This document shows positions 21,085 to 23,665 of a stretch of 64,000 nt of DNA, one piece after another; position 1 is the first letter of the stretch, and each line of letters starts with the position of its first letter. Below the pieces are notes generated by a model that saw only the letters and a list, made by a program, of their open reading frames with translations, was not told where the DNA came from and searched no databases. Origin of the DNA: Calditrichia bacterium. GTDB lineage: Bacteria > Calditrichota > Calditrichia > RBG-13-44-9 > J075. The stretch is taken from positions 96,001 through 160,000 of the forward strand of contig JBOEGD010000018.1 in the NCBI GenBank assembly GCA_050633245.1, read 5' to 3'. A program made the position numbers and the translations under genes.

Positions 21085-21546
21085 ATGACCCGACTGCACA
21101 TAAATAAGCGCGAGTATTCCGCAAAAGCGGATGCAGACATGCCACTACTCTGGTATCTGCGAGACATCCTGAACCTGACCGGCACAAAGTTTGGATGCGG
21201 TATGGGGCTTTGTGGTGCGTGCACGGTGCTCGTCGATGGTAAGGCTGCGCGGTCTTGTATGGTAACGATCAGTAGCGTAGAAAATAAAGAAGTGACAACA
21301 ATTGAAGGCATCTCACAGCGAATGAATAATCGTCTGCAGCCGGTCTGGATTGAAGAGCAGGTGCCTCAGTGTGGCTATTGTCAAACTGGACAAATAATGT
21401 CCGCGCTGGCTCTACTCAAAACAAATCCAAATCCCTCAAATGAGGAAATTGAAGCGGCGATGTCTGGCAATATTTGTCGCTGCGGAACGTATTCGAGAAT
21501 TAAGAAGGCAATTTGTTCAGCTATCGGTGAGGAAAGCCGTGGCTAA
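21085..21546 (+). CDS. iorA: 2x[2Fe-2S] small subunit of a molybdenum hydroxylase (IorA/CoxS family)
   Basis: GTKFGCGMGLCGACTV, QCGYCQTGQIM, NICRCGTY. Confidence 0.9.
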   Translation: MTRLHINKREYSAKADADMPLLWYLRDILNLTGTKFGCGMGLCGACTVLVDGKAARSCMVTISSVENKEVTTIEGISQRMNNRLQPVWIEEQVPQCGYCQTGQIMSALALLKTNPNPSNEEIEAAMSGNICRCGTYSRIKKAICSAIGEESRG

Positions 21547-23665
21547 CAAAGGAACGCTCAGCAGACGCAGCTTTATAAAAATATCTGCGGCAGCAGCCGG
21601 CGGACTCCTGATAAGTTTTGGAATTCCAACTTTAACTAAAGCAGAAGAGAAAAATATCGTGTTAAACCACCATCTCAGCATAAACAGCAGCGGTATTGCT
21701 ACTATCTCCTTCCTGAGAAGCGAGATGGGGCAGGGCATTAAGACCGCGCTTCCAATGTTGATTGCAGAAGAACTGGAGATGGATTGGAAAAACGTACAGG
21801 TTACTCAGCCGCCCTACGATATTCGATTTGGACAGCAGGCTACCGTGGCAAGCAGAAGTATTCATGATGAATGGGAGGCGCTGCGGCAAGTTGGTGCATC
21901 TGTACGTGAGCTATTGATTCTGGCTGCTGCAAACCGTTGGCAGGTTCATCCAGAGAGTTGCTATGCCGAGCGTGGTGTGGTTTATCATTCTCAGAGCTCA
22001 AAATCATTAAGCTATGGTCAGCTCGTTGAAGAGGCTGCACGTCTTGAAATGCCGGAAAATGTGGCGTTAAAAAAGCCTGCGGACTTCAAGTTGATTGGCA
22101 AATCGATTCCACGGATAGATATCCCTGAAAAAGTTATGGGTCGTGCAGTCTTTGGCATTGATGTGAACGTGCCTGAGATGGCTATTGCTACGGTCTTGCG
22201 CTGTCCGGTATTTGGTGGAAAGGTTAAACGTTTTGATGCGACGAAAACAAAAAAATTAACGGGTATTATCGATGTGGTTGAGATTACCGGCGGTATTGCG
22301 GTAATTGGCGAAAACTATTGGGCTGCCAAGCGCGGTAAGGACATGCTGGATGTGCAGTGGAATGCAAAAGGTCTGGAAGATATTAATTCTGAAAGCATTT
22401 TTATTGGGCAGCGTGAAGCATTGGTGAAACCGGGTGATCATATTGTTACAGATGAAGGCAATTTTACTTCGGCTTACAACAAGGCTGAATGGCAGCTGTC
22501 GGCAGACTACGAGGCGCCTTTTCAAGCTCATGCTACAATGGAGCCAATGAACTGCACCGCGGACGTAAAAGAAGGTGCATGTCGCATCTGGGCACCTACT
22601 CAGGGAACACTCTGGATTCAAATGACAATCTCCGAGGCGCTTGAGATTCCCATGAAAAACATTGAAATTCACACGACCTATATGGGGTGTGGCTTCGGAC
22701 GACGCGCAGAAACAGACTTTGTATTAGATGCGGTAGAAGCATCAAAAGCTGTTGGCAGGCCCGTGAAGGTGATCTGGTCTCGTGAAGATGATATGCAGCA
22801 TGACTTTTATCGCCCGGCTTTTTCCATGCAATTAAAGGCAGGAATTGATAAGAACGGAAAGCCTGTTGCCTGGAAACATCAGCTTGCCGGGCCTTCAGTT
22901 GTTCGTCGGTGGGATGTAAGTGCCTTCGATTGGGCTGCAATAACCGGCTCAGACTGGCTCCCGTATTCGATACCCAACTTTCGTACAGAAGCAACCTTTA
23001 TTCCAACGAATGTTCCGGTGGGATACTGGCGTGGAACAGCAAACTCATATACCCAATTTGCAAATGAGACGTTTATCGATGAAATAGCGACGCGACAACA
23101 AATTGACCCTCTTGAGTATAGGCTTGGTTTATTAGAGGATGCACCCAGAGCACGAAAAGTACTCGAAAGCGTTGCTGTTCAGACGCAATGGGGAAGTTCA
23201 TTGCCCGCGGGAGTTGGGCGTGGGGTCGCGTTGTTTGCCCAAGAGTGGGATGAATTTAAGGTCTATTGTGCACAGGTTGCCGACATTGAGTTATCTGAAA
23301 CCGGAGACATTCGAGTGCGCCGCATATTTTGCAGTATCGATTGCGGACAGATAGTACACCCCGATACGGTTATTGCACAAACAGAAGGTAGTATTGTCTT
23401 TGGTCTTGCTGCTGCTCTTTACGGCGAGATTGAAATTGAGAAGGGGAGAGTGAAGCAAAGCAATTTTCACGACTACCCAATGCCAAAGTACAATGAAGTG
23501 CCCGAGATAGAAGTCCGCCTGATAAAAACTACAGAGTTTCCGGCTGGTGCCGGAGAAAAGGCAGTTGGGGCTACAGCACCGGCAATAGCAAATGCGGTTT
23601 ATAACTTAACCGGGCAACGACTACGCCGTTTGCCATTAAGACTGGATAATACAACAATTAGTTGA
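21539..23665 (+). CDS. iorB: Molybdopterin-binding large subunit, xanthine-oxidase family (isoquinoline 1-oxidoreductase beta-like), with Tat signal
   Basis: GTG start after GAGGA and a twin-arginine signal LSRRSFIK. Motifs SEMGQG, HATMEPMN, MGCGFGRR, YWRG, QTEGSIVFGL, GAGE...APAIANA. Confidence 0.9.
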   Translation: MANKGTLSRRSFIKISAAAAGGLLISFGIPTLTKAEEKNIVLNHHLSINSSGIATISFLRSEMGQGIKTALPMLIAEELEMDWKNVQVTQPPYDIRFGQQATVASRSIHDEWEALRQVGASVRELLILAAANRWQVHPESCYAERGVVYHSQSSKSLSYGQLVEEAARLEMPENVALKKPADFKLIGKSIPRIDIPEKVMGRAVFGIDVNVPEMAIATVLRCPVFGGKVKRFDATKTKKLTGIIDVVEITGGIAVIGENYWAAKRGKDMLDVQWNAKGLEDINSESIFIGQREALVKPGDHIVTDEGNFTSAYNKAEWQLSADYEAPFQAHATMEPMNCTADVKEGACRIWAPTQGTLWIQMTISEALEIPMKNIEIHTTYMGCGFGRRAETDFVLDAVEASKAVGRPVKVIWSREDDMQHDFYRPAFSMQLKAGIDKNGKPVAWKHQLAGPSVVRRWDVSAFDWAAITGSDWLPYSIPNFRTEATFIPTNVPVGYWRGTANSYTQFANETFIDEIATRQQIDPLEYRLGLLEDAPRARKVLESVAVQTQWGSSLPAGVGRGVALFAQEWDEFKVYCAQVADIELSETGDIRVRRIFCSIDCGQIVHPDTVIAQTEGSIVFGLAAALYGEIEIEKGRVKQSNFHDYPMPKYNEVPEIEVRLIKTTEFPAGAGEKAVGATAPAIANAVYNLTGQRLRRLPLRLDNTTIS

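Follow-up and report, generated by a model that had tools for sequence, protein, structure and literature searches.

A molybdenum hydroxylase of IorAB type, with a twin-arginine signal, inside a thiopeptide-type gene cluster of a Calditrichia bacterium

The DNA described here is a stretch of 64,000 nucleotides from a Calditrichia bacterium (assembly GCA_050633245.1, contig JBOEGD010000018.1, positions 96,001 to 160,000 of the forward strand). We call this whole stretch the window and use its own numbering throughout. From 17756 to 38218 it holds about 20 kb of closely packed genes, all on one strand, which form a thiopeptide-type cluster for a peptide that is made by ribosomes and modified after translation (RiPP). 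Within the cluster and on the same strand, with core genes on both sides and only 9 nt away from the YcaO gene YcaO-1, lie iorA (21085 to 21546, +), coding for a [2Fe-2S] small subunit, and iorB (21539 to 23665, +), coding for a molybdopterin-binding large subunit. The position of iorAB inside a thiopeptide-type cluster is genuine and had been described correctly; as a lead it is appealing but comes from a single genome.

IorA and IorB are a textbook pair of subunits, and here both carry their domains with E-values far beyond chance. IorA, a product of 153 residues, contains both [2Fe-2S] domains (Fer2_2, PF01799, 4.6e-28; Fer2, PF00111, 2.1e-08) and the Cys residues are visible in its translation, while IorB contains both molybdopterin-binding domains (PF02738, 6.2e-40; PF20256, 2.6e-35). 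The best solved relatives of the two proteins are chains of the same enzyme: 8gy3_B, an aldehyde dehydrogenase small subunit, for IorA (7.7e-54) and 8gy3_C for IorB (3.9e-88), the latter with an alignment that spans residues 6-701 and includes the twin-arginine N-terminus. In the G-x-G-E loop, Glu673 of IorB is aligned with its counterpart in 8gy3_C; this Glu is the catalytic base in the family, and it is conserved in the 119 best matches of IorB. Taken together, these features point to a molybdenum hydroxylase with two intact subunits, a member of the xanthine oxidase superfamily of the IorAB / membrane-bound aldehyde dehydrogenase type. A twin-arginine translocation (Tat) motif, SRRSFIK, occupies residues 8-14 of IorB and is matched by PF10518 over residues 7-24 with 24.9 bits (cut-off 22.7). 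The corresponding signal peptide is encoded at 21539 to 21649 (+), with a predicted cleavage near residue 37, and IorA has no signal peptide of its own. The substrate of IorAB cannot be named, since none of the 13 NCBIfam models listed for IorB and none of the 16 listed for IorA reaches its equivalog cut-off; the best score for IorB is that of XdhA_XDHase, with 197.7 bits against a cut-off of 780. We accordingly rejected IorAB as an equivalog of a named enzyme (XdhA, PaoC, HcrA, PucD and others), the scores lying below the curated cut-offs.

The YcaO-1 gene ends with a TAG at 21073-21075 and iorA begins with an ATG at 21085, which leaves a gap of 9 nt; an alternative in-frame start of iorA, TTG 21079, would shrink it to 3 nt. 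The longest open reading frame (ORF) of iorB begins at ATG 21440. We took GTG 21539 as its start because this codon places the Tat motif at the N-terminus and gives a protein of 708 residues, equal to the database's own record and in agreement with the listed homologues (695-757 residues). With this start iorB overlaps the stop codon of iorA (TAA 21544-21546) by 8 nt, and 251 nt separate its end from the start of the precursor gene. The initial annotation of this DNA had identified iorA and iorB as an IorAB-like molybdenum hydroxylase, had put iorA within 10 nt of the YcaO stop and iorB in overlap with iorA, had read SRRSFIK as a Tat signal and had placed the pair between YcaO and precursor in a RiPP cluster. 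Domain matches and 8gy3 relatives bear out the identities, the measured distances and the PF10518 score agree with the rest, and the end coordinates are exact.

The spacing puts iorAB in one unit with YcaO-1 and with the gene for a 489-residue protein that precedes it. As the 9-nt gap leaves no space for an independent promoter, the expression of iorAB is probably tied to that of the peptide genes. From YcaO-1 to the precursor the only terminator-like calls on the + strand are two that overlap, at one site inside iorB. The region has 8 terminator calls where shuffled sequences have 7.3 +/- 2.8, and 10 promoter calls where shuffles have 15.1 +/- 3.9, so neither is in excess; the promoter scan was unable to place a promoter, and the host may not use sigma-70-type sites. 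Directly 3' of the iorB stop, at 23666-23700, a hairpin with a perfect 6-bp stem and a 3-nt loop is visible by eye, which the terminator scan did not call.

The first gene of the unit (17756 to 19225, +) codes for the 489-residue protein, a partner of YcaO-1 with no match in Pfam or NCBIfam. YcaO-1 itself (19228 to 21075, +; longest ORF from TTG 19189) has its YcaO domain (PF02624, 1.3e-51) at residues 243-584, behind an N-terminal extension of ~240 residues, and matches the SagD-type model TIGR03604 at 3.9e-59, under the cut-off of that model. On the other side of iorAB come the gene of the 56-residue precursor peptide (23917 to 24087, +) and a pyridine synthase relative of the [4+2] cyclase type (24296 to 25405, +; PF14028; NF045556 TbtD_PbtD_pyrid, 1.4e-47, with 162.6 bits and thus below the NCBIfam cut-off of 325). 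They are followed by a split LanB-type dehydratase (25430 to 28702, +; N-terminal part 25430-27841 and C-terminal part 27845-28702; PF04738, PF14028, TIGR03891) and by an ATP-binding cassette (ABC) exporter (28727 to 30604, +; ABC_membrane and ABC_tran domains), the likely route of the peptide to the periplasm. A SagB/ThcOx-type azoline dehydrogenase, SagB1, is encoded at 33548 to 34672 (+; PF22767, PF00881, TIGR03605 3.7e-49). The cluster thus has the gene set of thiopeptides and pyritides, namely a pyridine synthase relative, a split LanB, an azole-forming YcaO with its dehydrogenase and a precursor. The core of the precursor opens with SCSSGPGLHSC and continues into a hydrophilic tail; as in thiopeptide cores, it has a Ser-Cys at its start and a second Ser-Cys later. 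A 77-residue ORF in the 700-nt upstream region (17497-17730) was considered as a second precursor and discarded, as it has no family match.

Homologous clusters were sought through the pyridine synthase. A word-based search found only the query itself. HMMER on 1.84 billion representatives gave 292 matches at E<=0.001 including the query, 35 of them at E<=1e-30, the best non-self match being 33% identical. With 13 aligned sequences, namely the query and 12 full-length proteins from among its closest relatives, we retrieved 11 loci from species-representative genomes, ten of Acidobacteriota and one of Longimicrobiaceae (Gemmatimonadota), here named L001 to L011, and compared 15 proteins of the window with them by tblastn. 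The thiopeptide/pyritide gene set recurs in these loci. A pyridine synthase is present in all 11; homologues of the precursor were found in 9, of LanB-N and of SagB1 in 8 each, and of LanB-C and of YcaO-1 in 7 each. The exporter has full-length homologues in three loci, at 40-41% identity. In the four loci that show no YcaO-1 homologue this holds for the stretch covered, and several loci end at contig ends. The precursors of L001 to L011 share a conserved acidic leader with two Ala at its end, followed by a core-initial Ser, and this leader is what relates the window precursor to small ORFs in 9 of the loci; several loci have 2-4 precursor genes in tandem. The 489-residue protein has homologues adjoining the YcaO-1 homologue in 6 of the 11 loci (L001, L004, L006, L007, L009 and L011), and this family of ~490 residues appears as a conserved upstream partner of a YcaO of 620-650 residues in this cluster family. 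It may represent an unrecognised E1-like or leader-binding partner.

We tentatively favour the reading, at a probability of roughly 0.42, that iorAB encodes a cluster-specific periplasmic oxidase that was recruited by this lineage and acts on the exported thiopeptide-type peptide. The unit of 489-residue gene, YcaO-1 and iorAB would be co-transcribed, and IorA and IorB, joined to each other and loaded with cofactors while still in the cytoplasm, would be exported as a pair by means of the Tat signal of IorB. The peptide would be matured in the cytoplasm by YcaO, dehydrogenase, LanB and pyridine synthase and would then reach the periplasm through the ABC exporter of the cluster. There IorAB could oxidise it with oxygen taken from water and not from O2, passing the electrons on to a cytochrome c or a quinone-linked partner encoded elsewhere. 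On chemical grounds the likeliest site would be an electron-poor ring carbon, either C4 of the pyridine, which is 2,3,6-trisubstituted, or C2 in the imidazole of His. Both proposals come from what is generally known of this enzyme family, the imidazole by analogy with C8 of xanthine.

Several observations weigh against this reading. The lead rests on one genome, and tblastn finds neither iorA nor iorB in any of the 11 homologous loci. At E values up to 10 the absent genes give noise only (the best IorB match has E 0.72), and PF02738, PF20256 and PF01799 match none of 130 ORFs from these loci in Pfam. All 11 loci have a pyridine synthase and lack iorAB, azole enzymes also occur in homologous clusters without the pair, and His is found in the core peptides of L004, L006 and L007; no feature of the core peptides tracks with iorAB across the loci. 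The co-occurrence of iorAB with homologous pyridine synthases, which the initial annotation had suggested as a test, is therefore not seen among these loci, and neither pyridine nor His, its suggested targets, tracks with iorAB. As to the enzyme, the cluster encodes no c-type cytochrome (CxxCH), such ORFs occurring in the window only at about 42.1-43.6 kb, at a cytochrome c peroxidase gene, and the Pfam scans of the window turned up no flavin adenine dinucleotide (FAD) subunit and no XdhC-type maturation factor. The other maturation enzymes are probably cytoplasmic, which would leave a gap between their compartment and that of a periplasmic IorAB. No precedent was found either: the full-text literature, with most subscription papers and supplements outside its reach, yielded no molybdenum hydroxylase in a RiPP cluster, and the passages it returned hold only unrelated mentions (an entry in a reference list, a MoeB annotation). 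Finally, the place and orientation of the 489-residue/YcaO-1 module vary among the loci. A module that varies in this way makes its 3' end, where iorAB sits, a junction rather than the inside of an operon that cannot be divided.

The main rival reading is that iorAB is a hitch-hiker. It would then encode a periplasmic dehydrogenase of the usual kind, acting on aldehydes or N-heterocycles in catabolism or detoxification and unrelated to the peptide; the pair would have come to lie at the module junction and be transcribed from the promoter of YcaO by read-through. We regard this as a serious possibility, only slightly less probable than the favoured reading. It would account for the absence of iorAB from the 11 homologous clusters, for a redox partner outside the cluster and for a best solved relative that is an aldehyde dehydrogenase for both subunits, and the variably placed module would offer a natural point of insertion at its 3' end. 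The family is also huge and, to judge by numbers alone, mostly cannot be linked to RiPPs: of 8000 scored candidates in the IorB search 7999 had E<=0.001, which means at least 7999 homologues as compared with 292 pyridine synthase relatives. The Tat signal is likewise a trait of the family and no adaptation to this setting, since 8gy3_C has a matching N-terminus in the alignment and PF10518 is found in some homologues. The tight coupling to YcaO-1 speaks against a mere passenger, however, because a gap without room for a promoter would tie the pair to the expression of the peptide genes. The absence of iorAB from the homologous loci is itself weak evidence, since these are distant (28-33% identity of the pyridine synthase) and each has accessory genes of its own.

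The slot that iorAB occupies can be compared in the seven loci in which the 3' neighbour of YcaO-1 is readable. This neighbour is the precursor in L001 and L007, LanB-N in L006, an unknown opposite-strand gene in L010 and a gene outside the cluster in L011. In the remaining two, both of Acidobacteriota, the gene directly 3' of YcaO-1 codes for a DsbA-like thioredoxin that has a CxxC motif as well as a signal peptide (L004:1006-1944, -; L009:4359-5264, -). A secreted redox gene in the same slot in two of seven loci indicates that extracytoplasmic accessory enzymes recur there. The clusters of L004 and L009 have Cys-rich cores, and together with the DsbA-like gene these may reflect disulfide formation outside the cytoplasm.

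A recent insertion of a passenger could have left traces, and none was seen. The repeats around iorAB are short (12-18 nt) and none brackets the pair. The G+C content at third codon positions (GC3) and the codon distance are 0.426 and 0.048 for IorB and 0.481 and 0.102 for IorA, all within the ranges of the window (GC3 0.343-0.483, codon distance 0.032-0.120). With no bracketing repeats and with host-like GC3 and codon use, iorAB is not a fresh insertion, and its arrival is old enough for it to have blended fully into the host sequence.

The divergence of IorB also sits poorly with an ordinary family member that merely travels along. Among 5.8 billion proteins its best match is 48% identical. 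The 119 best matches, from several phyla, are 43-48% identical to the query as listed by the search and 44-48% over the aligned columns, and have a median of 60% among themselves, so that IorB is far more divergent than members of the subfamily are from each other across phyla. In a FastTree phylogeny of IorB with these 119 matches no terminal branch is as long as that of the query, at 0.92 (for the others the median is 0.11 and the maximum 0.67). It stands as a singleton beside one metagenomic match, and it is the only cluster-linked copy. As a control for sampling we used the cytochrome c peroxidase of the window (42150-43616), which has relatives at 73-76% identity. The lineage is therefore sampled, yet no vertical orthologue of IorB is seen in it, none exceeding 48%, which argues against a conserved housekeeping gene of the lineage. 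Judged by these matches IorB is, like the pyridine synthase with its best match at 33%, an accessory orphan and not a core gene of the lineage. The peroxidase, a di-haem protein fused to a sorting domain of the type IX secretion system (T9SS), has Calditrichia relatives at 57-58% as well; with the T9SS sorting domains and flagellar genes of the window, these indicate a bacterium of the Fibrobacteres-Chlorobi-Bacteroidetes (FCB) group.

IorB departs from its homologues at 46 of 240 columns that are >=90% conserved, where the matches do so at a median of 6 and at most 33. These departures are concentrated towards the C-terminus (residues 481-708 account for 28, at 99 conserved columns, and the part before them for 18, at 141) and include the residues directly after the catalytic Glu. 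Such changes in conserved columns, together with the altered loop, could be taken to mean that iorAB is a decaying relic without function. We consider this highly improbable. Both ORFs are intact and of full family length, Glu673 of the G-x-G-E loop is kept, as are 85 of 87 columns with >=99% conservation in the homologues, the Tat signal scores above its Pfam cut-off and the Fe-S domains score strongly. By its alignment IorB is intact though unusually diverged, and the enzyme looks functional.

Two further genes of the cluster bear on what could happen to a peptide in the envelope. 3' of the ABC exporter come a gene for an outer-membrane protein that resembles TonB-dependent receptors (30577 to 32814, +; CarbopepD_reg_2; its Atlas structure has a template modelling (TM) score of 0.85 to receptor clusters) and a gene for a protein of 241 residues (32842 to 33567, +), with a hydrophobic N-terminus that by eye resembles a signal peptide and weak TPR matches (E 0.003-0.04). 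Neither has a tblastn match in the 11 loci, so that the window cluster has gained envelope genes. Their presence suggests that the product, alone or as part of a complex, may be taken up. A periplasmic IorAB might then serve self-protection by inactivating stray product in the periplasm, or might act on the re-imported peptide, perhaps as a metal complex. The Tat signal would place the enzyme appropriately, the gain of both genes in the same cluster would fit, and the Pfam matches of the cluster reveal no other gene for immunity. We nevertheless consider this improbable: TonB-dependent receptors are common in the window (others lie at 10213-12399 and 55181-57688, by Pfam), the receptor gene lies 7 kb away from iorAB, in another transcription unit, and the related clusters do without both genes.

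An oxidase recruited to act on the exported peptide remains the reading that we favour, on account of the coupling to YcaO-1, the secreted redox genes in the same slot of related loci, the gained envelope genes and an enzyme that is intact yet diverged. A bolder form can be imagined in which IorAB is the first molybdenum hydroxylase in RiPP tailoring and performs the first extracytoplasmic step of thiopeptide maturation, adding oxygen from water, with no need of O2, to the pyridine or imidazole ring of the exported macrocycle. In this stronger version the proposal is doubtful, and we think it rather unlikely to hold. At its boldest, the pyridone or oxo-imidazole so formed would make a metal-binding peptide that is re-imported by the receptor-like protein.

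Comparison with known enzymes places the pair close to the isoquinoline 1-oxidoreductase IorAB, whose founding member is that of Brevundimonas diminuta. There, too, a subunit of ~150 residues with two [2Fe-2S] centres is followed by a molybdopterin subunit of ~700 residues that bears the Tat signal, and there is no FAD subunit. Many of the best IorB matches are annotated as 'isoquinoline 1-oxidoreductase beta subunit'. Relative to proteins of that name, however, the query is at most 48% identical, has the longest branch and stands in a RiPP cluster and not in a catabolic setting. The membrane-bound aldehyde dehydrogenase 8gy3 provides, with its chains B and C, the best solved relative of both subunits. 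In that enzyme a third subunit, a cytochrome c, gives the anchor to the membrane, whereas the window cluster encodes no CxxCH protein. PaoABC of E. coli (5g5g/5g5h) is also periplasmic, Tat-dependent and of the same superfamily (PaoC 2.9e-39, PaoA 1.9e-28). It has its Tat signal on the small subunit and possesses a FAD subunit, in contrast to the pair in the window, where the signal is on the large subunit and no FAD subunit appears among the Pfam matches.

As a whole the cluster resembles those of thiomuracin and thiocillin type, with which it shares precursor, split LanB, pyridine synthase, YcaO and dehydrogenase. Late ring hydroxylation in thiopeptides of this type is done by cytochromes P450 (P450s), and late thiopeptide oxidation in general is, as far as is known, the work of O2-dependent cytoplasmic enzymes such as these. 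A published abstract likewise deals with oxidations of persiathiacin by P450s. IorAB belongs to another enzyme family and would, as proposed, use oxygen from water instead of O2 and work in the periplasm instead of the cytoplasm. The nearest working analogy to such a scheme is the maturation of pyoverdine. Some of its periplasmic enzymes use the Tat pathway, and a TonB-dependent receptor re-imports the product. The likeness is one of logic and not of enzyme family, as ribosomes do not make pyoverdine and none of its enzymes belongs to the molybdenum hydroxylases. According to a published account (PMC9305348), the peptide is produced in the cytoplasm and exported, its oxidation and tailoring following in the periplasm.

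If the favoured reading were correct, IorAB would represent new chemistry for RiPPs. With oxygen derived from water the step could work in low-oxygen habitats, and the attack on electron-poor ring carbons, which P450s do not favour, would offer a new engineering handle for macrocycles with pyridine and azoles. It would also mean that in diderm bacteria the completion of a RiPP can take place outside the cytoplasm, and in its boldest form the scheme would amount to a cycle of export, modification and re-import like that of pyoverdine, on a ribosomal thiopeptide scaffold. Were iorAB instead a hitch-hiker, it would usefully caution against reading function into a gene's close fit within a cluster.

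The cluster family to which the window locus belongs is little explored. It extends over Acidobacteriota, Gemmatimonadota and the FCB group; its precursors have their leader in common, and it conserves a 489-residue partner of YcaO that is of no known family. Its accessory genes differ between loci. Upstream of three precursors in tandem, L002 (3436-5541) and L003 (3415-5514), both of Blastocatellia type, encode a B12-binding radical S-adenosylmethionine enzyme together with an AhpC/TSA-TPR protein. Although both loci retain a dehydrogenase of SagB type, they show no YcaO in the stretch covered. In the window the first azole set is followed by a second module (34563 to 38218, +) that consists, by Pfam, of a nitroreductase-like protein (34563-35612), a ThiF-like protein (35603-36868) and YcaO-2 (36869-38218) and is without counterpart in the 11 related loci: ThiF has no tblastn match there, and what SagB2 and YcaO-2 match there are the loci's genes for SagB1 and YcaO-1. 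Elsewhere in the window Pfam finds T9SS sorting domains and flagellar genes.

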